Below, one piece after another: positions 3,603 through 31,713 of a stretch of 32,329 nt of DNA (position 1 is its first letter; each line of letters opens with the position of its first letter). Both the position numbers and the translations under genes were made by a program. Source of the stretch: Stramenopiles sp. TOSAG23-6 (taxonomy: Eukaryota); NCBI GenBank assembly GCA_900128565.1, contig LT635959.1, positions 1-32,329 on the forward strand, given 5' to 3'. The notes beneath the pieces are model-generated. The model was not told where the DNA came from, did no database searches, and was given only the letters and a program-made list of their open reading frames with translations.

Positions 3603-3616
3603 AAACCCTAACCCTA
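3603..3616. promoter_or_regulatory. Telomere-like repeat/telo-box AAACCCTAACCCTA in divergent promoter
   Basis: Two CCCTA(A) units between head-to-head genes; the regulatory role is inferred. Confidence 0.55.
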
Positions 3617-3798
3617 GTTACTACTAGTAGCGCTATTAAAAAAAAAAAAAGGCAGAAAAAAAGGCAGAAAAAAGAAATTTCCTCGGCGACTTGACCTTGA
3701 CTTTGGACTTCCGTTACACAAACAAAATTAATTTTACAGTAAAAGCTTCTTTATTTGATTTGTGTCTTCTACTGATTGTGTCTACTGGAAAACATAAA

Positions 3799-6193
3799 AT
3801 GATGATTGGTGGGGTGAACTTAAGCGCTGTAATAAAGTCAAATGACAATGAAGAATCATTTCTTCTTGTGGACGAAGGAAAATGTGGAGATATCACAACT
3901 TCACCTGAGCAAAAGAAAAATGTTCCAAACTTTTGTACATGTACTACAAAAAAGACCGAGTCTTTATCTTTCCAAAATCAACACGAAATGGACAACTTGA
4001 TGAGTGAGTCCGAGATGGACTTGTTTTCTACATTTGAAATTATGCTTGAGCAGTTTTCCTTTGGTGTTGGGGGTAATCTGACTGACGACTGCGAACAGTT
4101 GGAAGAGTCTGCCGCAAACTTTGACGACAAAATGATGGAGTATACAACTGGAACTGACGGTGAAGTTCACATGGTATTCAAATTGACTGAAGATATGTTG
4201 GAATATCTTCAAGGCCATGATGAGTCTTCTTGGGAGTATGTCTACTCGGAAGCACAAAAAAACAAAGACTCCTCTGAAAGTCAGCCAGTTGATGCTGACA
4301 GTGTAATTAAGGATGAATTTTTAAGAATCTCTCGTGAACAAACACCTGATATGTACGAGAGAAAATACCATCCCTTGCGTTTTTCAATCTTAAATTCATT
4401 ATACCTCGTTTCAATGTGGTTCATTCTCCTTGTCTCAACTATTGCAATGGATAACATCGTTGGCCAAAAGCTCTTTCAACCATGGGCATATACGAGTACA
4501 TTTAACCGTGAACTAATTGAATACAGATTTATGAGCAAGAGAAATTCATTCAATATGAACAAGAGAAATTCATTCAATATGAACAAGAGAAACTCATTGA
4601 ATACTCGTGAATTCGAAAACCTTGCACATGCAAAATATGAAAATGTATTCTATATGTCAACTTGGGCCAAAAAGAAATTAAAGCAACATCCAAAAAAACA
4701 TAATTCAAATGAAAACAAAAAAGATATTTTGAATCCTCCGGAGGTACTTTTTAATTATTACTTTCAATTTTTTTTTTCACAGTAAATTTCATACCTAACG
4801 AGTTTCAAATGTGATATATTTTTTCAGAATACATGTCAAATCGGCTTTGGTATGGCCCTCTTTGAGTGAATTAAATGCATATAATTTACCTCGTGGAAAC
4901 TATAATGAGTCAGTATTACCTATGCATAATCAAAATTTCAACAAAACAAACGATGACTTCTATGGGCCAATTGGAAGTAGAAATAAAAAAGACACATCTA
5001 AATTCATCCCCGTAAGTACGTACTCTGGTGCGAAGAACGAAACACTTAAGGAGAAAGTTTCTCCAGTTGGACCTGTACCAGCTAGTAATAAAGCTCAAAA
5101 GCATACTAAAACTGTCTGGTTTGCGATTGGTGAAAAAGGTGAATCTGTTCCCTCAGGAACGTACGAATACCGAAGTAATCATACACTCTTTCATAAAAGG
5201 AATAAATTCAAAATTAAAAAGGATGGTGCATCATCACTTGCTCTTGTATTAGCAAGTCCAATCGGTCAAAAATGGAAAGAATATGCACGTCAAGTTCGCT
5301 CCCAACTCTATGTTACAAGTGTACAAGTGTTAAAGGATGATGTTTTACTATCAAAATTATTCACTTTGTTCGCAAAAGAGCAATGGCAACGTAAATCTGA
5401 TAAAGATCAGCGCGATGCAATGGCAATGCAACTGGTGATAAGGACTAAAAGCACCGGGTCTCCTCAGTTTATGTCTGATTATGTACAGAATTTTTTAAAA
5501 CATCAGCATATTAATGAATTTTGTTCAAGACAACGCTTATCTGACAAAACAAAAAAGTGTTCATTTGAAGGAAACAAATCACTTGTACCTGTGTATGAGT
5601 TTGCTGTAGTTTCGCCAAAAATGCCAAGCGCATATTGGACTTACTCAACATACCCAACGCCTAAGGTGGACTCTTCATTCTTCTGCAATGAAAAAAAGTG
5701 TCCGTGGTGGGCAGCCATGTTACAGAATGACTCAAGCGAACGTAGCGCAAGTCTGTCTCATGTTGATTCGAAAGCTATGCAGTTGGTTTCAATGTCTAGT
5801 GCACTCACTAAGCTTGAAAATGATATAAGCCATCCTGACACGTGGGGGGAAGAGTTCAATTTTGATAATTTCAATTATGAGAATGCTGAAGAAAATGTCG
5901 CATCATTTGAAGATGCATTGAAATATGTTGAAGCAACACTTTCAGAAGAAGAATCTTGGTTAGTTGAACACCAAAGGCAACTATGGATTGAATTTGCAAA
6001 GACAGAAGTAGCACGTCAAGAATTGTTGTTGCAAAAAAACCTTGTTTATATTGCACGAGCATTCATGAAGGATCTCGAAGACAGAGCAGAAGTGCCAGCA
6101 GCAGCAGCAGCCCGGGCAGCAGCCGCAGCAGCAGCACCGGCAGCAGCAGCAGAAACAGCGGCGGCAGCAGCAGCAGCAGCAGCATCAAACTGA
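3799..6193 (+). CDS. Hypothetical protein, 2 exons (3799-4743, 4835-6193), ~767 aa, with one hydrophobic segment and a poly-Ala tail
   Basis: ORFs 3691-4785 and 4811-6193 join in frame (PPE|VKSALVWP) on removal of intron 4744-4834. Contains a 24-nt x3 repeat (MxKRNSxN) at 4531-4602 and a GCA tract at ~6097-6184. Confidence 0.6.
4744..4834 (+). other. Family intron 1, 91 nt, GT...AT
   Basis: GAG|GTACTTT...TACCTAAC...TATTTTTTCAGAATACAT|GTC. The CAG ending at 4827 gives a frameshift and stop. Confidence 0.75.
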
Positions 6194-9300: not shown

Positions 9301-10808
9301 AGTTATTACGTTTTTCATTTTCAATTTTCCAAGTGCTCTTCTCCTTCTCTTCATCACTTGCTTTATATGTGATGAAACAGGAAAACAATACGCAATCGAA
9401 TGACCAACAGGCATGACACTCTAAAAATATCATCACAGTCTTAAGTGTTGCAAATAAATACGAGTGATTATTCCAGTGAGTTTTGTCTAACAAAAATAAA
9501 TACCAAGCACCAATAGCACAGATAAAACAAGAAAATTTGTAGAAAAATCCTAAAATAATTCCAATATGAGCAAAAGTAAGTACAGCTCTGAACAAAACGA
9601 AACCATCCCAATTTAAAGGAGTTATCCATGAAAAATAACTAAAATGACACTTGTCATTAGTCAACAAATACTGATTATAAAGACGTTCCATGATGAAATC
9701 AAACATCATTACAATACCGAAGAAAATTCTCCAAATTGCGAGAGACGAGCCATCTATGGGTGCACAAAGTTGTGCAACAATGTTATTCCAAATACTCAAT
9801 TTTACGTTTTTATCATTTGTATCATTTGTATCAATACTCAATTTTACGTTTATATCATTTGTATCATTTGTATCATTTCCATTATCTGCAATTTTATAGG
9901 TATCTTTATCTGTACTTATATCCATTGACATTTCAAAAAATCTTTGTTTATCACGACGTTCTCGTCTTTTCTCATCTCTCTGACGTTTATGTATTGTAAA
10001 AAAATATTTTTTTTCATAAAAAAAATCGTTAGGTACGAAATTTCATACCAAAAAAAAAAAAACATGATGAAGAAAAACGTACATCTACCATTTCATTAAG
10101 TGTTGCTTTTAAATAAGCAATTTTACGTTCGTATGTCATAACTATTTGATCTTCCCGTACGATTGAAGCTGAATCTATTGTCAATTGACTTATATCATAA
10201 TCCATGTTCTTTTTTTGATCATTTTGTAGAGTATTCAACGATTTAGAATGATTTCCACTGTCTTGTATAGAATGTTTCATATTTATGTCATTCGTTATGG
10301 TTAGGTTTTCATCTTCAGGAAGTGTATTTTCTGGAAGGGTGTACATTAATCCGACCTCAAGTGCAACAGTTGGATCTATCGTTTCATTTTCATGAATGCC
10401 TTTAAGTTTTATCAATTCTTCTTTCAATTTTTGATGTTTGATCTTTTTTTCTTTTATTCGTTCCATTTTTAAATTTTCCTCTCTCAATTTTCCCTCTTTT
10501 ATATGTTCAAGTTTCAATTTTTCTTCTTTTTCAATTGTTGTATCTTGTTTTATTGGTTTTATTTGACTCGAACAGATATTATTACAACACAATCGATTCA
10601 ATTCTGCATTCAGATTTCCTTGAAACAATTCAGTTTCATCCTCAATTGTTGGTGAGTTTGCACTTCGTCTAGATCCAAATTTAAATCCTAGACGCATTCG
10701 AGCAACGAATTCTATGGGAGAGGATGGTTTGTATGTTTTCTTTTTCATAATATTAGCTTTGTCCTCCTGGGCATTTATACGTAAATTTTGCTTCTCTTTC
10801 TTTGGCAT
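6377..10808 (-). CDS. GGCX: Vitamin K-dependent gamma-glutamyl carboxylase-like protein, 2 exons (10808-10083, 9988-6377), ~1445 aa
   Basis: HTTM/VKG-carboxylase motifs DGSSLAIWRIFFG, FLLDKTHWNNHSYL, YFIAGLKK, LPYSHFITKGYNN, GLYGYS, SLN..QRIVNP and FVADLPG. The upstream 259-aa ORF joins in frame through intron 9989-10082 (EMVD|KRQRDEKRR...FFEMSMD). Confidence 0.85.
9989..10082 (-). other. Family intron 2, 94 nt, GT...AT
   Basis: GAT|GTACGTTT...TTTCGTACCTAAC...AAATATTTTT...ACAATACAT|AAA. An in-frame CAG 9 nt downstream is an alternative acceptor. Confidence 0.75.
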
Positions 10809-11002: not shown

Positions 11003-11022
11003 TAGGGTTAGGGTTAGGGTTT
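11003..11022. promoter_or_regulatory. Telomere-like repeat/telo-box TAGGGTTAGGGTTAGGGTTT in divergent promoter
   Basis: About three TTAGGG units between head-to-head GGCX and WDR34. Confidence 0.6.
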
Positions 11023-13091: not shown

Positions 13092-16000
13092 TTACTTGGC
13101 ATGCACAGCAGCATCTTTCACTTCAACGTAAGCCCGAACTGGATACAATGGCATTCTTCTTTGAAATATTTCCAGACCATCGGCATTAATGTTTTGTGAC
13201 TTTTCTGAGACGGACCTTTTCTCATTAGGATTTCTTACCAGCGTTGATTTAACTTCATTTCCAGTCGATACACAACAAAATACAGAACGTTCACTTCCAT
13301 CTTCAGCAATATAGGCATCAAAAAATTCAAGAAGCCGAGCAGGGGTATGTATTGCGAAAAAATATCTTTTTTTTGGTTTAAAAAATTTGTTAGGTACATT
13401 TTTTTATGGTTTTATGTTTTTTTGTTTTGAAATTCATTATGAAAACGTACAATATTCAACACAGCTGCGGCATCGCGTTCTTTTTCATTAAATAGAAACG
13501 TTCTACCTGAAATCTGTTGCCACATTTTTGAAGATTCTTCATTTAATGTTTTCGGTGTTTCTGAGAGCTGAGCAGCCAACGATTTTTTGTGCAAGTTGAA
13601 TGAATTAAATGCATTTTTCAAATGGTTTGGGTTATTTTTATCAATATCACCAGTATCTTGTTTTGCACCACCGTTCATTTCAACAAGAAGTTTACGGAAA
13701 TCTTTCAAAAATAGGAGAATACGATCCTCTAAATATTCTCCAGTAGCCTTATCACTTTGTATAATAATTTGACAACCTAGTACACCCCACTCCGTTGCCA
13801 TTCCTGACCATACGAGATAGCCTAATTGTTCTTTTGTCCGTAGTTGATCATAACAGGGTTCATTCATAATATTCATGAGTAACTGTAACACTGCTGACCT
13901 TTCACCACCATCAGGAAATATTCCATCTGATTCTGAATCATTACTATTTGATATATTTGAAGGATTAATACTTTCTACAGGACAATCCATTCCACACTGA
14001 AAAACATACCGAATTGCATTACAAACCTGTTCAGGATTAGATTCTTTATGTTCAAAATAGTATACAGTTTTGGTATCTAATCGAACAGAACGTGGTGCAG
14101 GTTGTTGTGATGCAAAAAGACGCGAACATTTCAACAACTCAGGAACCAAAATAGCGCATTGTTTTGCATCTGACGTAAGACAATTGCCATGTATTAAAGT
14201 TTCACAAAATATTCGATGAAGTAAACGAGGTATAAATGCATTGACTTGTTCATGTGTAATATCATCAATTACAGCAAGTTTATCTCTATAATGCCATTGT
14301 GGATTTAATAGAGCATGACGTGTACAATACATTGCATGTTGATACGGTGCTTCCATCTCAAAATCTTCATATCCGCGTTTCAATTTATTCTTCAGACTTA
14401 TAAATCTCGGAATGTTTCCTTTTTTTTCTGATATTTCAAAAGACTTCATTTTCTCTACAATTTTCTTCAAGAGAATGGACATTTTACTATTATACCCACT
14501 CAAAACTAATTCTAAACCAGACCAACTTTCAGATAGCGCATAATTCAAACCAGCTAATTCAGCAAAATAGCTAAACTCTGTAAGTTCATCGGTAATCATA
14601 CGTTGATATAATGATACCATTACTGAAGCTTCAGGAGATTCATATGCAACAGGTGTTAACAATCGACAACAAAATGCCATTTTTGGAACTTCAAAATAAC
14701 CATCTTGTTTATACCATAATCGAATATAGTCTGTGTCGAGAATGACACGTGGCGGCTCGGTACACGTTTTTTTAATACCATTAGGTAGCGGATACAGTGC
14801 TAAATCTTCGGGTAAAAATGGATTAATTTTCGGCATAAAAACTTCAGATATAAATTCGTCACCAATTTCCCAATTTGTTTTGACTGTACTAGCAACAGAG
14901 TTGATACTATGTTCAGTTCCATACCATTTTTCTTTCATTAAAGAAATATTGGGGTTATCTGATGTATTTAATGTATTATTATCACAAACACCTAATTTTG
15001 AAACTACAAATACAAAACTATTCTCTGGTTTTAAATAATTTAAAAAGTTTTGAATTAAAGAAGAATCAAATTCACGAAATAAACTTCGACCAGTTAAAAC
15101 AAATTCCGCTGGATATTTCTGTAAATGACCCGCAATAGTAGTACAATTTGACATTGGCTTTCTTTTGGATTGAAATTTTAAACTAATTTCGTTTAATAAC
15201 TTACATTCTTCCCAGACTGATTCATCCGGTCCATGGGTTCGAAGCATCTTCAAATATGAAAATATTACAGAGCACACACCATTCACATTTTGAAGGCCTT
15301 CTTCAGTGACTTCCACGGTAACTTCAAACATAGAAAAGCATGACTGTGAACTACTTGTACCAGCACTTAGTTCATTGGCCCAACCTTTCGACTTTAAAAT
15401 AGACAAAATTGACCCTGCGCTCTCATGGCCGATCAAGTGAGACAGATATCGCATGTATTGTAGAAAAATATTTCAAAAAAAAAACCTTAAATTTGTTATG
15501 TACAAAATTTCGTACGAAAAAAAATTCGAATTTGAAAAAAAGTAAAACATACATGGGTTTCGTCTTCCAGTGTTTCTCAACAGGAGGACAAACAAACGTT
15601 AAACGAACATAACGAAGATCTTTTACTGGGATAATATTTACCTTTTTACAAAAACAATCCGTATAAGGATTTAACTCGAATGACGGTGCAGAAATTTCAG
15701 AATTTTTAATTTTTCCAAATTTTTCTCTTATCCACTTTTCTTGAACATCCAAAGTCTCACGACCGATGACGCATAGTTTCATTAAATTTGCCGAATAATG
15801 TTTGGCATGAAAATTAAGTAATGCTGAACGAACGTCAACTCCTTCTTTTTCTGGAATAGTTTTTAGTGTTTCCAAATTTCCAGTTCCGAATTTGTGCACT
15901 GGATGGTCTGGACGAGCTAAACTTTTACTCAACTGATAGAGGCGCCAATGATCAGACTGTAAATTTTTAGAATTTTCACTATCAACAGCTTTTAGTTCAC

Positions 16001-16427
16001 GCCCTGTAGCAGACGCGGTGAATAATGGTGCAATAAAGAACTGAGCAAAGCGATCAAGTGTACTTTCAAGGTGTTCATGATTCACGTGAAAGTGAAAGTT
16101 TGTACTCTCTGCTCCAGTAAATGCATTACTCATACCACCGTTACTTGAGAGATGAGCAGAGTAGCTATTTTCATCGGGGTATTTCTTTGTTCCTAAGAAA
16201 AGCATATGTTCAGTAAAATGAGCCAAACCGGGTAAATTATCAGGGTCGCTATAGTGACCAACCTTTACATCTAACGCTGCAGCTGCCTTGTCCGTCTGCT
16301 CATCTTGGATTAGCAAACAAGTGAGTTTATTCTCTAAAACAACAACTTTATAGTTACATTTATCATTGGCCGACTTCTCCACACCATTAGATAAGCGCAC
16401 TGCATCCATTGATCCATGTACCGGCAT
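13092..16427 (-). CDS. IDE: Insulin-degrading enzyme (insulysin, peptidase M16A), 3 exons (16427-15553, 15452-13451, 13346-13092), ~1043 aa
   Basis: GLAHFTEHMLFLGTKKYPDEN (HxxEH), YLSHLIGHE and YDQLRTKEQLGYLV. A last exon without its own ORF call encodes TPARLLEFFDAYI...FQRRMPLYP and ends in TAA at 13092-13094. Confidence 0.93.
13347..13450 (-). other. Family intron 3, 104 nt, GT...AT
   Basis: ATT|GTACGTTT...TGTACCTAAC...ATATTTTTTCGCAATACAT|ACC. Gives VLNI|TPARLLEFF. The nearest AGs (19 nt up, 46 nt down) are out of frame. Confidence 0.88.
15453..15552 (-). other. Family intron 4, 100 nt, GT...AT
   Basis: CAT|GTATGTTT...TTTCGTACGAAATTTTGTACATAAC...GAAATATTTTTCTACAATACAT|GCG. Gives WKTKPMRYLSHLIGHE. 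Confidence 0.9.
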
Positions 16428-16528
16428 TTCCCCCTTTCAATTGGTGATTCTTCGAATGTTGCGCTTTAGAAGACAAGTTTTTTTTTTCTCGACGCCGCTT
16501 CGATATTTATTTGGAATTTTTCGGTTTT

Positions 16529-16554
16529 GGTTAGGTTAGCTTAGGGTTAGGGTT
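16529..16554. promoter_or_regulatory. Telomere-like repeat GGTTAGGTTAGCTTAGGGTTAGGGTT in divergent promoter
   Basis: Two perfect and two degenerate TTAGGG units between head-to-head genes. Confidence 0.55.
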
Positions 16555-16737
16555 GACGTTAATTTTTAATAATATTAACGTACCGTTGTGGGTTGCAGAC
16601 CTCCTCGGTATACACAAGGTAGGCCCTTATCAACGTACAATCTTTTGACAAGATACACCCTCTTGACGCAACACTAGTGAGCCAGGTCCCGATTCTAGTC
16701 GAAATCGTAGAAGGTGCGTCCTCCAACATTACACACG

Positions 16738-17519
16738 ATGAGACGACTCGTGATCCTTTCACTATGCACTATATATATATCCTCAACAAACTCCGCAACA
16801 CGCATACGTTGGGCTGATGAAACTGGTGCTCACCTCATATCACGTTATACAGTATATAGAAAAGGAAGTGAATATGATGACTTCCTGCTTGACTCGGAAC
16901 TGCCTACATACAATTATCCAGAAGCTGTACTTCCCCTACCGCAATACCTTCACCCAGAAGCTCTACACTTCCTACTAGAACATTCACGAGCCTTATCCTC
17001 TACTTGGGTGCTCCAAAATAATTTGCTTTTAGAGAAGTCTAACGAAAAAAAACCGTCGAAAACATAAAGGAGCTCATAAAAAAAGTATACGAAGTCCTCG
17101 AAACCTTTAGCAGTTTAGATGCCGATTTTGCACATGTAGACCCAGAATCTCTCCAAGCGTTCGTCAAAACTACAGCCAGAGAATTTTCCAGAGAAATATT
17201 GCAACTATCTAGATTTATAGAGAAACAGATAGATGAACAGCCCAGCAATTCTGATGAAGCAGAACTCTCTGAAATACACATTTTCTCCAAAGAAGTTGAA
17301 CAGCTGCTAGAAAATACAAGTCACTACTTCCGCACTATCGTTCCAGAATTAATACGCCAACGAAACACGAATCGAACGAAAAGAAGACCACTAGAAAGAC
17401 CACTAGATGATAGAGTGGACAAGGCGGAACTAAAGAGACTGCCTCTTCGACCATTTGAAGAAAATCGTCTTGAAGGAACTAATGGTTATGGCGGAGGTGG
17501 TTATGGTGGGTCAAAATAA
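16738..17519 (+). CDS. Hypothetical secreted protein (~260 aa) split by a 1-nt frameshift at an A8 run (17045-17052)
   Basis: Signal-peptide-like start MRRLVILSLCTIYISSTNS. The -1 frame is open from 17043 to 17519; one extra A gives a continuous NEKKTVENIKELIKK...GGGGYGGSK. Confidence 0.5.
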
Positions 17520-17626
17520 CTATTTATAAAAAATAACATTCCTTTGTTAACTTTTTGATTTTTTTTGTCTTGTTTTAGAACAAGGGTGTGTAAAATTTAA
17601 ACAAAAGTTGACTTTTTTTGTACTTT

Positions 17627-18799
17627 TTAATTAGCAAATACCTCAATCTCGTGAAGTAATTCTGTTTGAACTTCAACAAATCCATTTTTTTCTGTTTGTA
17701 ATCTTTGTTTGTATCGTCGGTAACTAGGTAAACGCAAATCATTAGCATTGAACACCGATGAATCATTAGCATCATCAGAGTTTCCTAAAATAGCTTGAAA
17801 CAATTGTTCTATTCTATAATATGGATCTAACTGATTTGTTTGATTCTTTAATTCGCTAAATGAATCTGAAGATTCTCCAATAAACCCTGAAATTAATCTA
17901 GGTTGCATTGCTACTATCATTTGGCCATTAATGGTTGGTGTATTATCATTTTTCGTGTCATCTCGATGAGTTTCAAATGCAAAAGGTGAGCCTGTTGAAC
18001 CTGCTGCAAGTAGTTCTATCATTAATGCTATAACACTACCTTTATGTCCACCAAATGGTAACTGACTACCCTGTAATGCAAGTGTTGGATCTGTCGTAGG
18101 GTTACCGGAAACGTCAACGGCAGCACCTTGAGGTAGTTTCTTCCCTTCCCTCTGAGCTATTTGTATTTCACCTCTAGCTGTTGCAGATGATGCCATATCA
18201 AAAACAAAGGGTTCAGTACTCCACTCTGTGCCTTTGTTTGATGGTTTTTGTGTGTGCTTACTATTTTCCTTTTTGTGTTGTTGTTGAACTCTAGGAAAAC
18301 CAAAAGACATTGGGTTTGTACCATACACACGCTCTTTCCCACCTGGGCTATGAGCCACAAATGCTTTCGTATTGACGAATACTAAAGAGGCGATACCTTC
18401 CCGAGCCAACGTCTCGGCTTCGTACCAAAGTGCACTGAAATGTGCAGAGTTTTTGAAAGCAGCGACAGCAATTCCATTAGATTTCGCCTTATCAACAAGA
18501 AGTGGTCGCATAGCTTCAAAGCCAGGGATTGCAAATCCCGATTTACAGTCTACTCGAATGAGTCCTGGTGCTGCATCCGTGACTTTAGGAGATGTCGTTC
18601 CATCAATTTTACCACTGATGAGAGCAGAGCAATACCCAGGGACTCTAAAAAGTCCATGACTTAAACAGCCATCACGTTCAGCTGCAGTTATAACATTTGC
18701 TAATACCTTTGAAGAAACTTGATTTAACCCTGACTTATTGAGAGCACGAAAAGATAATCTTCGGATCTGAGACAGTGTTAGAGAAGATGTTTGTGCCAT
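17627..18799 (-). CDS. Ldh_2-family (type 2 malate/L-lactate dehydrogenase) oxidoreductase, DpkA/ureidoglycolate dehydrogenase-like
   Basis: AERDGCLSHGLFRVPGY, NSAHFSAL, YGTNPMSFGFP, PFVFDMASSATARGEI and LPFGGHKGS. Intronless; ATG at 18799. Confidence 0.9.
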   Translation of the reverse strand: MAQTSSLTLSQIRRLSFRALNKSGLNQVSSKVLANVITAAERDGCLSHGLFRVPGYCSALISGKIDGTTSPKVTDAAPGLIRVDCKSGFAIPGFEAMRPLLVDKAKSNGIAVAAFKNSAHFSALWYEAETLAREGIASLVFVNTKAFVAHSPGGKERVYGTNPMSFGFPRVQQQHKKENSKHTQKPSNKGTEWSTEPFVFDMASSATARGEIQIAQREGKKLPQGAAVDVSGNPTTDPTLALQGSQLPFGGHKGSVIALMIELLAAGSTGSPFAFETHRDDTKNDNTPTINGQMIVAMQPRLISGFIGESSDSFSELKNQTNQLDPYYRIEQLFQAILGNSDDANDSSVFNANDLRLPSYRRYKQRLQTEKNGFVEVQTELLHEIEVFAN

Positions 18800-19154
18800 A
18801 CACAAAAATAGGCAAATGCTAGGTGAAATGTGGAATTATATGCCTAGCTCTGAATGCTTTCAAGCTCGTGAGATGGGTGAGATGATGAAGTGAAAAGAAA
18901 ACTTTTGAAAGCAAGTTTTGTCGAGATTAATCTCGAAAACATCAATTGGCCGCAATTGGCCGAGTAACTGTTTGACTGCTGTCAAAAAGCAAATTGAAAC
19001 AGGTTTGACAGGTTCGTACCCGAGATTTATTTAAAAGAAACATAAAAATAGCAAAGAAATGATTTTGAGAATGTTTTATAATATATAAGACAAATGAAAT
19101 CATTTAATGTAATAACTATACGTACATATCCAGAAACTTTACACCAAATCTGAA

Positions 19155-22100
19155 TCAATTTTTCTTTCCATTTGCAATACTAATCAGTTTTTTGGCTCTA
19201 GTTTGTCCCAAATCCAAAAGAAGGGATAAGAATTCTCCTCTCTTTTTCAAGGTATTAATATTTTCATTTTCATCATATGAAGCTACTAATTCTTTTGGTG
19301 TACCAAATTCTGATACTATCCCATCATCCATTACAATAATTCGGTCACAATCAATAATTGTTGAGAGTCGATGAGCGATAAAAATACAAGTACAGCTGGC
19401 GAATTCTTCACGAATCGTGTTTTGAACTAGTATATCTGTATCATAGTCAACACTTGCTGTTGCTTCATCTAACATTAGAATTTTACAATTCTTTAATAAA
19501 GCTCTTCCCAAACACAATAATTGTCTCTGTCCTACACTGAAATTAGATCCACTTTCTGTTACAACTGATGATAAACCACCTTCTCTCGCTTCAATAACAT
19601 CTTTTAACTGACATCTACCGAGAGCATCCCATATTGTTTCATCTGAACATGTTTCAAATGGATCCAAGTTTGAACGAACAGTGCCGTAAAATAATACTGG
19701 ATCTTGTGGAATTATTGCAAGTCTTGAACGAAGTGTGTGCAATCCAAGTTTTGAGATATCTCGTCCATCAATTTTAATGCAACCACCTGCATGTTCAACT
19801 AAACGATAAAGTGCTACAAGTAGAGAAGACTTACCAGCCCCAGTTCTGCCACAGACGCCAATTTTTTCACCGCCATTAATTGCTACAGAGACACCACGAA
19901 GAGCAAGAGGGAGACCAGGTCTATAACGAAGTTGTACATCCTGAAATTCAATAAGTCCCTTTGAAGGCCATACAACGGATTGGGTAGCTAGAGTTTGCTC
20001 ACCAACATTATTATTATGAACCACCATCACAGTTTCATTCTCCTTTACTATACTTGGCGGATCACATGGTAAATGTCGTGGAGCCTCACTTTCAAAATTA
20101 CTATACGGATTCGATGTACTTGCTCCCATATACTCCATAAGTCTTTCTACTGCATTTAAATGAGTCTCCGTTTCAGCAACTTGCCTAACACCCCAACTCA
20201 AAGTCCCCATTACTTGAGTTATATACACTAAAGCTAAACCAACCATTGGTGCATTTTTCTTCGCATTTTCGTTTTCGCCGAAATGTAAGGTTGCGACAAC
20301 TGCAGTTGCAAATATTAAACTACTTCCAAGAAATTCAAGTCGTATACCTAACCATCTATTTGCTGAATTTCCATGAAAAAACGCTCGATGATGAGTGTCA
20401 AGAAGCGCACAATTACGTGTTGCTAAATGTACTTTGGAAAAATATTTCAAAAAAAAAATTCAAAATTTGTTAGGTACAAAATTTCGTACGAAAAAAAGTT
20501 CGAAATTGAAAATAAATAAAACATACATAATCTCCAATACAAAAGGAACGAATTGAAGGTAAACCTGAAAGAGTTTCACTTAAATTTGAAAAGATTGGAG
20601 CTGAAGCAAGAGATCCTATACGCTTTAATTCACGTGAAGTTTGTCTATAAAACTGTAAAATTAAATAATACATAATTAATAATGGTACTAAGGGAATTGC
20701 CATATAATATCCATTAATATAACAAACCAAAGCTAATGTGCCAATAACCTCAAATATACATCGTATCATGGTGCTCATCGCTTCCCGTAATTGATTATCA
20801 GCCAGATCTACATCTTCTGAACATCGACTTAATATTCGCCCGGATGGAGTTGTCTCAAAAAACGTTAAAGGAGATAAAAGTAATGAAGTTAAAAATTCAT
20901 TATGAAGATTTGTTGCTGCTCGAAGACCACCAATACTAAAAAATAATTGACATAGGAAATATGCAACCAAAGCACCGAATGTCCAAAGAGCATAAAATCC
21001 TAGCCACCAGTAGTGAGAATGCTCTGGATTAACTTCCGCTGCATCTTCAGTCCAAAATGCCAACCAAAGATTTGTAAAAATTTGAATTGCTTGCTGTAGA
21101 CTAAACATAAACGATAGACATATGATGACAAAAATTGCTGTTGAATTTCCTTCGATTCGCTTATTACTTTTAGGATTTCTCGCAAACATCTTAAAATACA
21201 TTAATATTACTGCCATTTGAACGCTACCTTTTTGTCTAGCATCTTTCTCAGTTAAATGACCAGCTAATCCTTTCCCTTGAAACTGTTTTTTATCTAACTT
21301 TGTTTTATCTTCATTAACTTCACTCTCACTCACTTTGTCTTTTTCTATTTTCAATGTAATCTCATTTGTTGTTTTATTTATAATATCATTTTCATTTATC
21401 TTTTCTTCATCAACTCCATGTGATGCCATATGTTCCAAAAAGTTTTGTGATGATTCTTTTAAATTTGCAAATGAACCATCATCAACAATACAACCATCTT
21501 TTAAGACAAGCACACGATCAACTCGAGGTAATAAATGAAGCTGATGCGTAGCCACGATCCGAGTTTTGCCAGTCATTTTAAATAAACCATCAAAAATTAA
21601 TCGACCAACGTGAGAATCAAGAGCACTGAAAACATCATCAAAAACAAAAATCTCACTATCTGAATAGAACGCACGGGCAAGAGCTATTCTTTGTTTTTGA
21701 CCACCGGATAAATTGATTCCCTTTTCACCAATTTCAGTTGAATCGCCGGCAGGGAGTAATTCAAAATCATATTTCAACTGACTAAATTCAATTGCTCTAC
21801 TGTATAATTCTCTATCAAATGGTTCAGATCCGCGAGATAAGCATATATTTTCCCTCACAGTAGCATTTACAATCCACGCTGTTTGGGGTACATAAGCTGT
21901 TGTTCCACAAGTCTGTAGACTTCCTTCCGTGTATATCATTTCACCTAAAATACTTGATAGTAGACTTGATTTACCGCTACCCACAGAACCACACACTGCT
22001 ATTAATTGACCTTTTTCAATAGATAAATTAATATCATTTAGACTAAAACCAATTTCATCATCATATTTTGCTTCTTCAGGAGAAGATTGTTTCCCTTCTG

Positions 22101-23684
22101 TTTCATTCATTTTTGTTTTTTTATCCTTATCCTTAGTCTTCTTAGCCTTATCTGTTTCATTCATTTTTTTATCCTTATCCTTAGTCTTCTTCTTATCCTT
22201 ATCTTCTTGACGATACCAGACAAATTTTGCATTTTTGATTTCAATGACATGATTAGTATCATTTTCAAGTTTTAATACTTCTTTAACTTCTGGATGAATC
22301 ATAAATTTAGAAATTCGTACATTCGCAATTCTAAATGAAACAAAAGCATTAATGATAAAAGGTAAAACAATAATAGGAAACCGAACCAAACGGAAAATTG
22401 ACAGAGCAGTAAAAATTTTTGATGCAGTCATTTCATTTCCAGTCAACGAATATGTAGCAAAAACAGCGAGAGAGACAAACATGGGTGTTAAATTCCACAT
22501 TGTATAATTTATCATTTGTACTATAATATGAGTAAATAATGCGTCAATCTCCTTTGCTCTAGTTTTATGTATTTGATCACTAAATGAATCTTCCCAACTA
22601 TATAGTTTTACAACTTTAATTCCGGCTATTACATCAGTAATTAACTTTACTCGAGCATCGGTTTGCTCTACTACACGTTTTCTAAGTCTTTCTAAAATTT
22701 TGACTAGACGAGCTTTTAGTGGCATTACAAGAACCATGGATTATGAAAAATATTTCAAAAAAAAAACTAAAATTTGTTAGGTACAAAATTTCGTACGAAA
22801 AATAAAAATAAATTCGAAATTGAAATGAAAACGTACATAACTACAAGACCAACTAATGAGGGCCAACCTATATAATAATATAATTGAGAAAAGGCAACAA
22901 CTATCTGAAAAGGCGCACTCCATAAATTATGCATATATGGAGTAAACCTCATTATTCGACCTGCATCATTAGACACAAGGTTGACAACATTTCCAGCAGA
23001 AAATTTTAAATTTGGACTCAGTTTTAAAACTTTTCCAAAAACACCAACGATAACAAAAGCTCTTACTTGCATAGCAATCCGATATACACCATGAAAATAA
23101 ATATTGATGAAAACACTTTGAAGAAATCTTGCTAAAAATAAAGAGAGAGCCCAGATGTAACCTAGTCGTATTCCTGTGTCATAAAGTTCCTCAGTAGCAC
23201 CTTTCTCAAAAAATTGTATCATTAGAGAAATAAACACTGGAATGGAGTATTGTAGAATGTCGTGCAGTAATTTATAAAATCCAGCGCATGCAAAAGTACA
23301 ACTAAATTCACGACGAATAGCACGTATTAAAGAAGGTTTCTTTTTCTTTGTTGGCTCCGTCGTAGCATTTTCATTAGTAGGTGCTATGGCACTTGAATCA
23401 ATTGAATCTAGATTACAAAAATCTAACTCTTCTTTCCATCGCTTATCAAATGCAGTACTCCATATTCTAGACTTATCAGACTCGAGTATATCAGGAATAT
23501 CTTCCATTTCTAGTGTTTTTTTTCGAGCAAGAGAGATTAAATTCTGAATCCACCAAAAACTCAGACGCGAACAGAAGTTTGCTTTCCCTTCACCACAAGG
23601 AGCAACAAGAGGTACATTGGGAGAAGAAGACAAGGTTTCATCATGCTTTTGACTTTTTTTTGGAGCATCATTCAACTTTGTCAT
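19155..23684 (-). CDS. ABCC/MRP-family full-length ABC transporter, 3 exons (23684-22837, 22735-20527, 20426-19155), ~1442 aa
   Basis: TMD-NBD-TMD-NBD layout with [70 protein letters not shown] and MLDEATASVD. Confidence 0.93.
20427..20526 (-). other. Family intron 5, 100 nt, GT...AT
   Basis: TAT|GTATGTTT...TTTCGTACGAAATTTTGTACCTAAC...GAAATATTTTTCCAAAGTACAT|TTA. Gives IRSFCIGDY|LATRNCALLD. The AGs 5 nt up and 4 nt down are out of frame. Confidence 0.9.
22736..22836 (-). other. Family intron 6, 101 nt, GT...AT
   Basis: TAT|GTACGTTT...TTTCGTACGAAATTTTGTACCTAAC...GAAATATTTTTCATAATCCAT|GGT. Gives GWPSLVGLVVMVLVMPLKA. The AGs 31 nt up and 23 nt down are out of frame. Confidence 0.9.
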
Positions 23685-23889
23685 TTTCAATTGTAAATAA
23701 GTTGCTGACTTACAGAATAAAATCGGAACACAACAACAACAAAACAAAAGGTTGACTTTTACTTGCGCTTCGCTTTGACACGAAATATCGAAATATTGAA
23801 AAAAATAATAATACTAATTTGATTTACTTTACTTGCACCAATAAATCCATTATGAAATAATAGAAAAACGATGATTTCAAACACAATTT

Positions 23890-24977
23890 CTATAATTTAG
23901 ATTTTTCTCTCTGGGCTTTACTTGGTAATTCTGTCTGTTGTTGCCACATGACAACTTTTTCTCTTAAACTTTCTATAATTCGTTCTTGTTTTGATATTTT
24001 TTTTTGTTGCCTTTTTACCACATTTTGAAGTTCTTGAATTCTTTCCATCGCTTGTTCCTGGATTTTTGTAAAATATTTCAAAATTTTTGATTTTTTTTAT
24101 TAGGAATAATTAGGTACAAAATTTTCATAGTAAAAAAAAATGGAAATGAATGATATAAACATACATGAGTTAAATTGTCGATGACTTTCTCGCTTGTATT
24201 ACTACTATTCTGCCGTTTTTCTAACGCTCTTCGTCGTCTTCTCTCTTCTTTTCGTGCTTTTTTTGCAATTAACTCGGCATCAGTTTTTGTATTTTTTGTA
24301 TTTTTTGTATTTTTTGTATTTGTTGTATTTTTTTCATTGTTTTTGTTTTGTAAAGAACGAGTTAAAGACGTTGGAATACCACGCTCAGTTTCACCGTCTT
24401 CATAAATGACATCATATGCTCCTTCTTCTCTGATACTGGTAACTTTTGCTCGTCTCCATGTTTTCCCCCTATATCGGACTTCTATACTTTCATTAACTTC
24501 AAATGCATTTCTTATTTTCATTGCAGTAAATCCACTACCACCATCAACTGTGGCTGCCTCCATTCCTAAATCTGACATACCCCCAATAGACTTTGGCAGC
24601 CTTTGTTTTTTTGGTGTTAACAATTTTGTTTGAACCTCTGAGTGTTTGTTTTTTGGTTCACTAACCTCGTTTTTTATAGAAGTTTTTGTTCCTTTTTCAT
24701 TATTTTCCATTATAGTATTTTCACTTTTGTTTATGTCTTGCATACCATTATCACAACCAACATCTGTACTTGTACTTTTTACTTGAGTAATAGCACCACC
24801 TAAAACACGGATACGCTCTCGAGGTACTTCACTTTCCCCACCAAGTGCCGAGTGACTATATAACAAATCAAATGTACCTTCTTCTCGAATGCCCATTACC
24901 TTCGCTTCTACCCACTCTCCCATATTTTGATAATTTGCTAAAACGTCTTGTCCAAATGCTATAATTGGCTCTGACAT
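23890..24977 (-). CDS. Tandem Tudor/Agenet-like domain protein with C-terminal coiled coil, 2 exons (24977-24165, 24057-23890), ~326 aa
   Basis: Two Tudor-like units (GQDVLANYQNMGEWVEAKV..GTFDLLY and FEVNESIEVRYRGKTWRRAKV..YDVIYEDGETE). In-frame join NLTH|EQAMERIQ. Confidence 0.7.
24058..24164 (-). other. Family intron 7, 107 nt, GT...AG (canonical-ending member)
   Basis: CAT|GTATGTTT...TTTTGTACCTAAT...GAAATATTTTACAAAAATCCAG|GAA. Confidence 0.85.
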
Positions 24978-25267
24978 TACTCGTTGTGTGAAATGATGTT
25001 TACCTGTGCTGCTTATAAATTCCAATGATTTCACTATTTACGAAAGTGTACTGAGTTTGTCGTTTTAAGTAGGACATAATATATCGACGGTTGAGCCGTT
25101 TCATTTCATAATAGCTAGCCTTGACACGTGGCACAAAAATTCAAGCACGAAATCGGTGGCAACAAAATCCAACAAATCGCGAATCGAACCACGAGTCATG
25201 GCCAAACACGAGGACGTCTTCCTGTTTCCTTTCGTTGCGGATAGTTAGATTTTGGCGATAAAAGAAG

Positions 25268-25461
25268 GTACGTTCTTTTTAGACACATTAACTTTTTAGT
25301 ATCTACACATTGCTTCAACATTGATGTAAATGTAATCTTTCATGGGTTTAGATTTCCCCTACTTTTATCCGTGAGAATTCATATATTTTGGTTGCCATAT
25401 GTATTTCCTTGACAATTTGTACTCACTCGTAACACCGCATGTATACTACAACACACTACAG
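25268..25461 (+). other. Probable canonical GT-AG 5'-UTR intron of ATP synthase beta
   Basis: AAG|GTACGT...CACTACAG| ending 8 nt before the ATG at 25470. Confidence 0.5.
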
Positions 25462-25469
25462 TCCGAAAA

Positions 25470-27659
<2,190 letters not shown>

Positions 27660-28065
27660 ATATATACTTGATGTTACCTAGTGTATATGTAGTATATTTA
27701 TATGGATACAATATCTTCATATTTGTATATGGTGTGTATAGCTGAATGAATGCGTATTTTGAAATGATACAAATGTCTTTATTGTTGCGAATTTTGGTAC
27801 AAATTTGTTACCTAAGTCTGTGGTAGTAGATATAAGGTTTACCTTCTTTTTAGTTTGTTTACAGTAATCGTTTAATATTTCACAAGAAATACATGAAAAC
27901 AGTTTACCTGTCACATGAGAGAAAATTTTGAAAGAATGAGATAAAAAACGTTGAAAACATTTTATTTTTATTTGTAAATCTTTTCTATTTTGTGTTTCAT
28001 TTTAACCCATCAAATTATTGCACGCTTATATGTAAGTATTCTTACTGCTGGTACGGTTGCATTGT

Positions 28066-28135
28066 GAGATTCCATACCATTTTTTTATAAAATGTACCTA
28101 ATTTTCAATTTGTTTAAAAAATGGTATGGAATCTC
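28066..28135. repeat. Perfect 20-bp inverted repeat with 30-nt loop
   Basis: GAGATTCCATACCATTTTTT (28066-28085) and AAAAAATGGTATGGAATCTC (28116-28135). Confidence 0.9.
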
Positions 28136-28143
28136 GTAGTACA

Positions 28144-28668
28144 CTACGACAAGGTTTTTCTTATAGTTCTCAATGTAGTCAACATTTTCAGTCTATCAAT
28201 TTTTAGAAACAATCCTATAAGTGTCGCGTATGTACTACTTGAAGAGCGCATGGAAAGTAGAGCTATATCTACATCTTCTTTATATTCTTCGGGGATATCC
28301 GCGAAACTAAAGGGGTTTTCTTTCACCCTTTCCATCGTTAGTTTCTTCCCATGTTTATAAAATTCTTTGCACTGGCTTTCCGAAAACTTTTCACGTTCAC
28401 AAATCTTTTTGACTGTAGGCGGATGAATCATAGATTGAAGTTGTTCATCTGAGACATGACGATGTTGTCGCGTGCCTTTTTCTTTACCAATTTCAACAGG
28501 ATTTTGTGGTTCGCGTCGCTTCAACATATGTTCCCGTGCGCTTGATGTATTGTGAGGAAGAAACTGTTTACCTTGACCAAATTTGGAGCTACTCGTATTT
28601 GTAGAACCACTTACATGTACAACGAAGATCAAAAGTAGCCGATAACCCCAAACTGATTTAATGGCCAT
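28144..28668 (-). CDS. Hypothetical secreted protein with a DUF4116-like segment
   Basis: ATG start and hydrophobic N-terminus; VKENPFSFADIPEEYKEDVDIALLSM resembles one DUF4116 unit. Confidence 0.55.
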   Translation of the reverse strand: MAIKSVWGYRLLLIFVVHVSGSTNTSSSKFGQGKQFLPHNTSSAREHMLKRREPQNPVEIGKEKGTRQHRHVSDEQLQSMIHPPTVKKICEREKFSESQCKEFYKHGKKLTMERVKENPFSFADIPEEYKEDVDIALLSMRSSSSTYATLIGLFLKIDRLKMLTTLRTIRKTLS

Positions 28669-28862
28669 GGTTATTTAAACTCGAGTTACACAAGTTTGGT
28701 TTATAGCTGCAGCATACACGTGCAGGCGCGACTTGATCGATCCAATCAAATATAACTTACTATGCGCGCGCAATTTTTCTAAAAAAAACAATTTTCACAC
28801 CAAAATTCGCGATTTCGTGTTTTTCAGTAATACAATGCTTGTATAAATTTCAAGAAATAAAC

Positions 28863-30609
28863 TTATTTATTTATATCATTGAGGTCTCTCTTTACTGTCC
28901 CACATTTTTGAGGAGTTTGAGATTCTGAAGAATTCCTTACAGGCTTCATTGGACTATTTACTTTTTCAATATTATCGAGCATTTTGTCTAGAATGTTGTC
29001 TATACATTTATCATTAAATGCAGAATGTACACCAAGCTTCATCTTTTCTAACACCATCTGTCCTTTATTAGAATTATTCAAGTTTTGAGTATTTTTTACA
29101 TCACTCTTCATATTCTTTTCTTGCTTTGACACGATCTTTTTTACATCACTCTTCATATTCTTTTCTTGCTTTGACACGATCTTTGGCTTTGAACAATAAT
29201 ATATCTGATTTGTAGACAATTTTTTAATACTTGAATACATATCTGATTCCACAGAAACTCTAAATTGCATGTATAGGAAAAACAATATGATACACTTGAA
29301 ATTTGGTTAAAACAAATCGTAAAACAAAAAAAGATCTAAAATATATATCTTTGAAATTCATGATGAAAACGTACATACCAACAGTCATACCAGCAGGAAC
29401 TATAACCTGTACGGGGGTTTGTGTCCCAGGTTTCATGAATTCTAAAGTAGAGCCTGTTCCTGCAGTGGGGGGAACTTCTAAATCTAGTATCAATGGTGGT
29501 AAAGATTTTAATACAGCTTTTTTTCGTAGAAAACGCACAATAATTTTTTTGTCAGTCTCATTGGGTAAATTGCTTGATTCAGTCTTCGGTAGAGTACTCA
29601 ATTCAGTAGAAATTTCTTGTGCTGTCTTTGACGAAGCAGATACTCCGTTAATAGCCAAGACTGCATCCCCTACTTCTATTTTATAGCTATGCTGTTTTAT
29701 GTCACTGGAGCTACCTTTCTTACTTATGCTAAAACTACGTAGAGGAAATGCCACTGCATCAACATCCTGAATGGTTACTGCAGTCATTTTGAAATCTTTC
29801 ACCTTGTAAACTGTCTGATCCGTAAAAACAAAACCTTGCATATATTCATGACAAACGACTTGATTTTGAAAAACAACTTCATACACGTCAGATTTCACTT
29901 TACTTTTTGTTTTCTTTCGATGAACACGTTCCGCAGCTCTTTGGGCAGCTGCTAAACGTTTTTTCTCCTCCATTTCTTTTTTAGTGATGATTACGGTCTT
30001 ACTGGAAGAATTAACACTATTTGCTTCAGCTTCAACGCCAGCAAAAAGTCGGAGAGATTCATTTGCTGCGGTTTTTCGATGTTCTCGGACACCAAGGTCA
30101 CCTTTTGCTTCATCATTACCTTCAGGTGGTACGTTTTTTGATAAACGAATTTCTTTTACCGTAATTCCAGACGTTGTTGAGTTGTCCGGTAGCCATGATA
30201 CTGAAAATGTAAGCCCTTCTTCCATATCATTATCGACAGAAGACACTGTCGCAGGACACCACTCCCCCTCCCAAAGTGCTTCAACCAAAGTCCCAACTTT
30301 AAAAAGTATTTCAGGCTTTTCAGTTTCAAGAAAGTTAAGCAACCTTTTTTTTGAGCCACGCCTTACAGAATTCACCTTCGACTTTTTGAAGTTACCAACG
30401 TTTTTAGTGTTTTTTTCCCTTTTCTCATCACTGCTTAATTGACGTTGGCGCTTTTTATTTGAACGAGCTTTTGTTAAAAGCGCTCCTAAAGACTCCTCAT
30501 CTGAAGAGTCCGAATCGGAATCACTCGTATCAACTTTGCTCATTTCGAAATTATTCTGAATTGATTTTGAATCAAGAGATTTGCCTCGAACATCTGCAAG
30601 GTCTCCCAT
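28863..30609 (-). CDS. Protein with Tudor-like and PDZ-like domains, 2 exons (30609-29375, 29268-28863), ~546 aa
   Basis: FKVGTLVEALWEGEWCPATVSSV (Tudor-like) and IEVGDAVLAINGVS (PDZ-like). Join gives VIVPAGMTVGMQFRVSV. A 39-nt tandem duplication (KIVSKQEKNMKSDVK) lies near 29095-29180. Confidence 0.65.
29269..29374 (-). other. Family intron 9 (diverged), 106 nt, GT...AT
   Basis: TAT|GTACGTTTTCATCATGAATTTCAAA...TTTTAAC...TTTTTCCTATACAT|GCA. An in-frame TAG 9 nt downstream is an alternative acceptor. Confidence 0.75.
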
Positions 30610-30870
30610 TATTGAAAATACTCAGAGTAAAACAATAAAAAATTGGGAATTGGCGGTAATTACTCTCTTTTGACTGACATTTTACAAATATTTATTACGC
30701 GACAAACCTGTTTCTTTTCTTTTTTTTTCGCTCCTCTGGCTCTAGACACAGAGGGGGAATTCAAATTTCGTCTCAAATTTCAATTATATAATCATATTGT
30801 TCGTATCGATTGTTCTAGCCTAGAATTCACGCGACCCTTCACATAAAAGTAGTGTGTACATCAATATAGA

Positions 30871-31713
30871 ATGATTCACGAAATAATTTTAATTAGTGCA
30901 ATTTTAGTAACACATGCTTTCGCAAAGTCATATCCGCATGATGAGCTAAACTCTGATGCTGCTATTGATAGTATTCTCGAGGAACACCCAGTGAACTACG
31001 AGTTTGAGGTGCCTGCTGTGCCAAGGTTTAACTTTCATTTACCTGATTGGGACGTTGATGCTGAGTATAGCTTCCTTGAATTAGGAGCAAAAGCATTTGA
31101 TAGTACAAAAATTGTGGAAGATGACCCAATACAATGTAGCACCGTGTGTAAACCTCTCAGTGTTGCTAAGAAAGAAGCAGCAGCAGCAAAAGCCGCGGCA
31201 CAAAAACCAAACCCAACAGAAGAGTCAAAATCTGCTAAACCATCTCCCTCTAGTTTTGCCGAAATTGGAGCAGATATTTCGCACAGGATGTCATTTTTAG
31301 AACTTTCCGTTTCGAAACAAATTTGCGAAGGTAAAAGCGGTGGATGGAATGATGAGAAAAAAGAGTGTGAACATTTTATGGTTGCAACAAAAGAAGAAAT
31401 GGCTTGGAATGGGAAAGAAATGTTCGAACTTTGTAGCAAAGAAATTGGTACTCTATACGTGCCATGTAATCCTTACCAAGCCCTGGCGTTGTCACATTCG
31501 TATGATATACCTGATCATAGTTACTATTGGCTTTTTCCAGGAGGACGTCATGTACATTTTATTTTTTCTCAATTTCGAATTTATTTTTCGTACGAAATTT
31601 TGTACCTAACGAATATTTTTTTGAAGTATTTTTCCAAAATACATCAGCCTGGATATATTCCACCTGGTTCAACTCTTTGTTTTTTAATCACACTAAAAAA
31701 AGTTGTTTCATGA
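30871..31713 (+). CDS. Secreted protein with degenerate FKBP-like C-terminal domain, 2 exons (30871-31551, 31645-31713), ~249 aa
   Basis: Signal peptide; repeated SFLE/SFAE motifs; ELCSKEIGTLYVP...GYIPPGSTLCFLITLKKV resembles the FKBP C-terminal pattern. Confidence 0.6.
   Translation: MIHEIILISAILVTHAFAKSYPHDELNSDAAIDSILEEHPVNYEFEVPAVPRFNFHLPDWDVDAEYSFLELGAKAFDSTKIVEDDPIQCSTVCKPLSVAKKEAAAAKAAAQKPNPTEESKSAKPSPSSFAEIGADISHRMSFLELSVSKQICEGKSGGWNDEKKECEHFMVATKEEMAWNGKEMFELCSKEIGTLYVPCNPYQALALSHSYDIPDHSYYWLFPGGRHVHFIFSQFRIYFSYEILYLTNIFLKYFSKIHQPGYIPPGSTLCFLITLKKVVS
31552..31644 (+). other. Family intron 10, 93 nt, in-frame and stop-free, GT...AT (or AG at 31647)
   Basis: CAT|GTACATTTT...TTTCGTACGAAATTTTGTACCTAAC...GAAGTATTTTTCCAAAATACAT|CAG. 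Confidence 0.85.

Follow-up and report, generated by a model that had tools for sequence, protein, structure and literature searches.

Putative GT-AT introns with an introner-like copy family in a 32-kb window from a MAST-3-type marine stramenopile

Introduction

Introners are known from Micromonas pusilla, Aureococcus anophagefferens and many aquatic eukaryotes, and according to the available parts of two surveys (PMC9860276, PMC12130899) they are similar short introns that lie in unrelated genes, bring their own splice signals and repeat as units that coincide with the intron. The same texts describe introner families with and without target duplications or terminal repeats. Here we analyzed contig LT635959.1 of Stramenopiles sp. 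TOSAG23-6, a stretch of 32.3 kb that is called the window throughout, and found ten short introns of one type (91-107 nt), nine of which would be excised as GT-AT introns and four of which are copies of one another. The window family resembles introners in all the respects named above and in its marine host, and differs from them in ending with AT instead of AG, in lacking a terminal repeat of at least 6 nt and in having no demonstrable duplication. As far as their available parts show, the introner surveys relied on annotated introns and counted only AG or AC acceptors as familiar (PMC12130899), so that a family ending in AT would be missed or discarded by them. The word 'stramenopile' does not occur in the main texts of PMC9860276 and PMC12130899, and PMC5778133 contains 'splice' and 'canonical' zero times and 'intron' twice. 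In the literature covered, from which the supplementary tables of the surveys were outside the scope, we came across no description of introners or of GT-AT introns for MAST-3.

Non-canonical intron ends have been described in several other systems. In the tunicate Fritillaria borealis, AG/AC and AG/AT make up 18% and 16% of 31,093 mapped intron borders (available parts of PMC13326754 and PMC11282704). They are excised by a U2-type spliceosome whose recognition of the 3' end has changed, with divergent U2AF paralogues implicated (PMC13326754, available part), and their origin from inserted repeats has been proposed in the accessible portions of both papers. The window family shares with Fritillaria a YAY acceptor (CAT in the window) and a YAY that often stands before the 5' site (YAT in 6/10 window introns). 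Fritillaria introns, however, start with AG and have highly diverse ends, whereas the introns of our protist host have a strict GTAYGT and a strong branch box and depart in the last base only. The introners of Amoebophrya, in the available part of PMC7789003, are likewise repeated non-canonical introns of a marine protist with a border-ambiguous direct repeat, but they have inverted repeats of 8-20 nt that form hairpins, direct repeats of 3-5 nt and no fixed terminal dinucleotides, in contrast to the hairpin-free window family with its invariant 2-nt flank and fixed GT..AT ends. The rare GT-AT introns of animals and Physarum (PMC1557818; bioRxiv 10.1101/2020.10.12.336362) use the same splice-competent terminal dinucleotides. 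They are mostly U12-type with a proximal branch, whereas GT-AT accounts for 9/11 introns in the window and the layout is U2-like.

Results

An earlier interpretation of this DNA, made from its letters alone (the sequence-only reading), had proposed introns with GT-AT ends, about one per 3 kb, over positions 15453-31644. Our analysis recovered the same ten introns, here lettered A to I and K, and the density agreed (10 introns per 32.3 kb, about 1 per 3.2 kb). Judged by frames and homologues, the introns in the proposed span appear real; K, I and H lie outside it. The ends also agreed: for A to I, excising GT..AT (GT..AG for D) joined the single phase that is open on both sides in 9/9 cases, with open runs of 199-200 codons upstream and 22-200 codons downstream. 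At five junctions (G, H, E, F and A), homologues confirmed the removed length without a gap. The M16 peptidase gene, which contains intron G (15453..15552, minus strand, 100 nt) and intron H (13347..13450, minus strand, 104 nt; phase 0, 200 and 84 codons open), is colinear across both junctions with P0002, a 45%-identical relative, the aligned residues being KKPLRYLSH and TKP[M]RYLSH at G and ESITREEL and LNITPARL at H. In the ABCC-type transporter gene, the codon AT|G (Met) created at the junction of intron E (22736..22836, minus strand, 101 nt, ending TCCAT) aligns with a Met of the ABCC2 chain 8rq3_A (GVGVMVLLIPV and GLVV[M]VLVMPL), and across intron F (20427..20526, minus strand, 100 nt) the spacing from RSF/RAF to NRWL is 27 residues in both the transporter gene and that chain. 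Intron A (27474..27564, plus strand, 91 nt) lies near the 3' end of the ATP synthase beta gene. Left unspliced, it would stop the protein 5 codons into the intron, while five ATP synthase beta relatives (72-94% identity) run on into the tail encoded right after it.

Intron K (91 nt, plus strand) extends from the GT at 4744 to the AT at 4834 (4744..4834) and reads GTACTTTTT...ATACCTAAC...ATATATTTTTTCAGAATACAT; a check by hand showed that its removal joins ORF 3640-4743 to ORF 4835-6193 in frame. Intron D (24058..24164, minus strand, 107 nt; phase 0, 200 and 55 codons open) is family-type and is the sole member that ends with CAG (GT-AG). Intron I (9989..10082, minus strand, 94 nt) interrupts the N-terminal part of an HTTM / vitamin K gamma-carboxylase-like gene, where phase 0 is open for 200 codons on both sides and the family motif matches. 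Intron C (29269..29374, minus strand, 106 nt; phase 2, 199 and 134 codons open) is also family-type and ends with ATACAT, and intron B (31552..31644, plus strand, 93 nt) begins with GTACAT. As a comparator we used J, a non-family intron in the 5' part of the ATP synthase beta gene (25519..25804, plus strand, 286 nt), which runs GTAAGT...ACAG, follows an exon ending AT, is 29-35% identical to the family and is supported by the N-terminus of P0123. An AT acceptor 6 nt downstream is also in frame, which leaves the 3' end of J unsettled. A further segment at 28540-28620 (minus strand), GTACATGTAAGT...CACAATACAT, has family-like ends without a branch box inside the open frame 28144-28674; it may be another, diverged intron or a chance match.

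The last three bases of the introns are CAT in 9/10 and CAG in 1/10. Because exon and intron both end with AT in 7/10, cutting there as GT-AT, TG-CA or AT-AC gives the same mRNA. The sequence-only reading had held that removal is scarless only if AT is the acceptor, and thereby overlooked the equivalent AT-AC reading. What excludes a uniform AT-AC reading is instead that H follows an exon ending TT and K an exon ending GAG; E and D, moreover, would end with CC. At H, GT-AT excision gives Ile at the junction, as in P0002, and the shifted reading gives Asn. Counted from GT, 10/10 introns begin with GTAY[G/A/T]T and 8/10 with GTAYGT, the classic U2-type form (B has GTACAT and K GTACTT). On these sequences we read the family as GT-AT introns. 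Nearby AG acceptors were considered separately and rejected. Close to their ends G and E contain no AG, while F has one 5 nt upstream of the end and K has a TTTTTTCAG that terminates 7 nt short of it, neither of which would keep the frame. An AG is passed over between the branch-like box and the 3' end in B, E, F, H and K. The skipping of CAG in K may point to active recognition, either of the ...AAYACAT end or of the ATATTTTTY block, rather than to mere tolerance.

All ten introns share a set of blocks, namely the 5' site, a branch-like box, a T-run and ATATTTTTY about 10 nt before the end. The extended 5' site is GTAYGTTTT, with two variants among the ten. The branch-like box TACCTAAC is present in 8/10 introns, usually preceded by GAAATTTY; the box of G is TACATAAC, D has the form TACCTAAT and C has none. 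The box stands 35-52 nt from the 3' end in the eight introns with a CTAAY motif. As read from the sequence, the U2-type features (5' site, CTRAY branch box and pyrimidine tract) are present, with the acceptor YAT in 9/10 and YAG in 1/10. The layout appears U2-like because of the distal branch box and the T-run, and not U12-like, since [AG]TATCC occurs in 0/10. The near-identical cores reported by the sequence-only reading were confirmed: the exact 20-mer TTTCGTACGAAATTTTGTAC occurs four times, in the introns at 15453, 20427, 22736 and 31552, with one more copy at 10033 that has 3 mismatches, and such copies were expected 0.01 times, none of 100 shuffles reaching five. A three-block signal pattern gave 6 matches in the 32 kb against 0.00 expected; applied as a specificity control to 596 Gb of prokaryote genomes, it gave 7 unrelated, chance-like stretches, none of them family-like. 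The exact 25-nt core was absent from the assembled genome-contig and viral-contig collections.

Comparison of the introns within the window showed that likeness beyond the signals is limited to B, E, F and G, which are 81-90% identical. Global identity was 0.90 for F-G, 0.86 for E-F and E-G, 0.84 for B-F, 0.82 for B-G and 0.81 for B-E, while shuffled controls had a mean of 0.61 and a maximum of 0.69. Between the blocks, the spacers of these four introns had identities of 0.80-0.92 (92% for E/F/G and 90% for B/F/G), above the shuffled maxima of 0.71 and 0.75. B is a mosaic that belongs to this core subfamily by its core and 5' spacer and has a different 3' spacer, which is typical of repeat subfamilies. 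The conservation runs exactly from (AT)GTA to CAT, peaks in the signal blocks and stops at exon flanks that are unrelated and have no consensus. The spacers of A, D, H, I and K were at the shuffled level, and C resembled H only in a 25-nt 5' block (96%). Similarity limited to splicing signals, which the sequence-only reading had named among the observations that would refute recent copying, is thus true of A, C, D, H, I and K and false of B, E, F and G. Four of the ten members show two of the three features that define introners, similarity beyond the signals and a repeated unit that coincides with the intron. Judged by these alignments, B, E, F and G are an introner-like copy family whose repeated unit is exactly the intron.

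Copies elsewhere were sought through the peptides that result when a gene model reads through an intron. This census covers two of three frames and only those models that read into introns, so its counts are lower bounds, and all counts in this study come from one 32-kb window and four other proteins. A search of 5.8 billion proteins with the peptide of G (P0242) matched 2 predicted coding-sequence (CDS) models among 3 candidates, a carnitine acyltransferase-like model (P0243) that contains two family introns and a ubiquitin hydrolase (UCH) model (P0244) that contains one. With the peptide of B (P0246), a search of 1.84 billion cluster representatives found 2 proteins at E <= 0.001: P0248, an Nrap model from the same proteome, and P0247, an ORF on a 536-nt environmental contig. 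Both were 86-89% identical to the B read-through peptide. P0247 and P0248 were identical to each other in 28/28 residues of the intron part, and B agreed with them in 24/25 residues from QFR to KIH when compared by eye. The flanks of P0247 and P0248 differ from those of B; the two proteins show opposite flanks and a frame-shift difference near the 5' end. At least four or five further copies lie in other genes, and on this protein evidence the family is spread through the genome and includes very young members.

Discussion

The window introns are probably spliceosomal introns of a lineage-specific, introner-like family in a MAST-3-type stramenopile, spread by insertion of whole introns after an AT-type site without duplication. 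Each copy would carry its own full set of splicing signals, consisting of a yeast-like GTAYGTTTT, the branch-like box, the T-run, ATATTTTTY and CAT, with a 3' site that corresponds to the usual YAG with its last base changed. Removal would be carried out by the major (U2-type) spliceosome, which would accept, and apparently prefer, U as the last intron base. New copies would arise when a whole intron, 3' CAT included, is inserted after a site that is usually AT, and the exon-side AT would then reflect a preference of the insertion site or of the splice context and not a duplication made by a transposase. Copying could have passed through DNA or through RNA by reverse splicing, and we lean slightly to a mechanism that works without terminal repeats or target duplication. 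A, C, D, H, I and K could be old copies with nothing but their signals preserved, or else ordinary introns brought into line with the same strict consensus. More tentatively, and somewhat short of calling it probable, we propose that the acceptor rule of the major spliceosome shifted from YAG to YAU in the MAST-3 lineage, that most introns of the genome would be GT-AU with their other signals canonical, and that this shift accompanied or allowed the spread of introners carrying CAU.

The sequence-only reading had explained the introns as an introner/MITE family, a MITE being a non-autonomous DNA transposon with short terminal inverted repeats, which here would insert at AT and use the duplicated AT as acceptor. 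A MITE origin seems rather unlikely to us, although several observations speak for it. As that reading had claimed, the exon upstream ends with AT in 8/10 introns, all except H and K; given an exonic AT frequency of 0.092, at least 8/10 would occur with P = 1.9e-7, and AT precedes 133/1404 exonic GTs. AT ends the intron in 9/10, removal is scarless, as at the Met codon of the E junction, and some copies are near-identical. According to the available parts of PMC9860276 and PMC12130899, most introner families show signs of DNA transposons, and the duplication can supply a splice site. However, the AT found at both sides in 7/10 introns is invariant across loci and therefore cannot alone show duplication; in its available part, PMC9860276 treats a flank match seen only across introns as ambiguous for target duplication, which is said there for AG flanks. 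Where the two ends could be told apart, they did not co-vary (0/3): H has TT in the exon and AT in the intron, K has AG and AT, and D has AT and AG. Position -3 of the exon equals position -3 of the intron in 3/10, with no locus-specific extension. One copy in P0243 comes after an Arg codon, and no Arg codon ends with AT; that the non-family J also follows AT points to a general exon-side context, J being a single case with an uncertain acceptor. The proposed inverted repeat ATGTAY...RTACAT did not hold up: both hexamers are present in only 5/10 introns (B, C, F, G and I), which is not above chance, and G alone has true complementarity at the sixth position. Because AT is self-complementary and GTA is fixed by the 5' splice site, the repeat shrinks to GTA/TAC, 3 nt beyond AT, while PMC9860276, in the part available, sets 6 nt as the minimum for a terminal repeat. 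Such repeats usually measure at least 10 nt. RNA folds of the ten introns were no more stable than those of shuffled sequences (z from -1.83 to +1.60), and no hairpin joined the ends. All ten family copies in the window are sense and genic; blastn-short found no antisense, intergenic or other family copy there and Pfam no transposase domain. The CAT/CAG end, finally, resembles a splice acceptor with one base changed and not a transposon end. Nothing shows that a cut-and-paste transposon did the copying. Of the earlier proposal, the introner-like copying of B, E, F and G stands, and the MITE anatomy is unsupported or ambiguous.

Other explanations dispense with copying or with the major spliceosome. 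Similarity without recent copying would result if the genome were intron-poor and all its introns were held by functional convergence to one strict extended consensus. This would suit A, C, D, H, I and K, whose likeness is confined to the 5' site, the extended branch box and ATATTTTTY, and even within B, E, F and G conservation is highest in the signal blocks; a preprint on Entamoeba is said to describe intron-poor lineages with transformed, extended signals. We nevertheless regard it as improbable, since the E/F/G and B/F/G spacers exceed the shuffled maximum, the subfamilies are mosaic, the read-through agreement reaches 28/28 between gene models and 24/25 with B, and J, in the same window, lacks every family block. 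Even less plausible is a transformed minor-spliceosome (U12-type) or AT-AC class, or a U12-type GT-AT class: 7/10 introns can be written AT...AC with the same mRNA, the 5' consensus extends over 9 nt and CCTAAC is one base off CCTTAAC, but the U12-type 5' site [AG]TATCC(TT) occurs in none of the ten, all of which have GTAY[GAT]T, and an AT start is impossible at H and K. U12-type introns have their branch motif about 10-26 nt from the 3' end, whereas the window introns have a more distant box followed by a T-run and no proximal motif of the TCCTTRAC type. That RNA splicing is not involved at all, and that the segments reflect precise DNA elimination, broken genes or an assembly artefact, is scarcely conceivable. 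Elimination would account for a 2-bp direct repeat at both ends of which one copy is left, as in the internal eliminated sequences of ciliates, which are bounded by TA with a 2-bp repeat, and an artefact could be suspected in a low-input assembly that contains Ns. Against these stand the strong consensus of the 5' splice site and branch box, the need for ten genes each to be broken at a point where the frame can be restored, and the independent seawater DNA runs, which contain 0.39-0.67 of the words sampled from window 19100-29000; stramenopiles are not known to have such an elimination system.

Several points weigh against an introner-like family of GT-AT introns. The junction evidence is computational, the putative GT-AT excision being read from the DNA and homologues, and the GT-AT call comes from H, K and D together with the uniformity of the set, 7/10 introns being uninformative. 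P0123, which covers junction A on a 1984-nt contig at 94% identity, is a relative and may simply lack intron A. The single-gene model at K depends on frame alone, neither ORF having a Pfam family, and K skips the textbook acceptor that a merely tolerant U2-type spliceosome should have used. Six of the ten introns (A, C, D, H, I and K) share signal blocks only, which leaves their common descent unsupported, and P0247 and P0248 may be two alleles, or two sides, of one locus. The AT flanks in 8/10 also fit a 2-bp target duplication, with H, K and D explained by later point mutations, and in a genome this dense selection would leave only sense, genic copies (10/10) under any mechanism.

If a eukaryote with GT-AT introns as its rule exists, it would be a natural experiment on recognition of the last intron base by U2AF1, by second-step factors and by pairing of the first and last bases. 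A shift from YAG to YAU, if true, would be a protist counterpart of the U2AF case in Fritillaria, but one in which only a single base is cleanly changed, so that recognition of the 3' splice site could be tested directly. The introns would also add an introner family that standard surveys allowing GT/GC-AG (or AT-AC) cannot see, and a case for separating insertion-site preference from target duplication in intron gain. There are consequences for annotation. P0001, the M16 peptidase model (window 13347-16436, minus strand), reads into introns G and H and has further gaps relative to the continuous ORF of the window, and the models of P0243, P0244 and P0248, all from the same proteome, also contain intron read-through. 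These four models suggest that unrecognised GT-AT introns have probably degraded the protein set and gene counts of the lineage, which annotation permitting GT-AT would improve.

Host and Gene Content of the Window

The closest protein to the window is P0001, a deposited CDS model with a GSMAST32... label, and every aligned block of it is identical to the window translation. Such protein labels point to a MAST-3-type marine stramenopile as the host, which we take it to be on account of this identity. Poly(A) metatranscriptome RNA runs, queried with words from window 19100-29000, contained 0.09-0.22 of them. The window is compact, with an overall GC content of about 35% (30-44% along its length) and long ORFs densely packed on both strands. 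Its genes include, besides the M16 insulinase-type peptidase, the ABCC-type transporter and the mitochondrial ATP synthase beta subunit, a Ldh_2 dehydrogenase, a WD40 protein and the HTTM / vitamin K gamma-carboxylase-like protein. Rfam and tRNA scans of the window gave no match.

Several genes have features of their own. The ATP synthase beta protein (27100-27660, plus strand) carries a C-terminal extension of about 100 residues (...KWTG...GKIKPPP...) that is common to the relatives P0123, P0125, P0126, P0128 and P0130; the standard enzyme is not known to have such an extension. Single Ns occur at 3343, 26300 and 26319, the latter two inside the ATP synthase gene. The HTTM-type gene is a 1221-codon ORF (6377-10042, minus strand) with matches to HTTM (E = 1e-56) and to the lumenal domain of vitamin K-dependent gamma-carboxylase (E = 9e-28), domains that are unexpected for a heterotrophic stramenopile. 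Two genes of unknown function encode tandem repeats, one with the peptide KIVSKQEKNMKSDVK twice (28863-29306, minus strand) and the other with three NKRNS(F/L)N(M/T) units (3640-4743, plus strand). At about 17046-17056 (plus strand), an A-run is shared by ORFs 16711-17067 and 17043-17519, which overlap there in different frames, and the second has no Met; the assembly probably has the wrong homopolymer length at this point, a real frameshift being less likely. The telomere-repeat-like motif CCCTAACCCTA is present in four copies in the window against 0.09 expected, at 3606-3616 (plus strand), 11003-11019 (minus strand) and 16542-16552 (minus strand). Every copy lies within one of three short head-to-head intergenic regions between divergent genes, and the motif may act as a promoter element similar to the telo-box.

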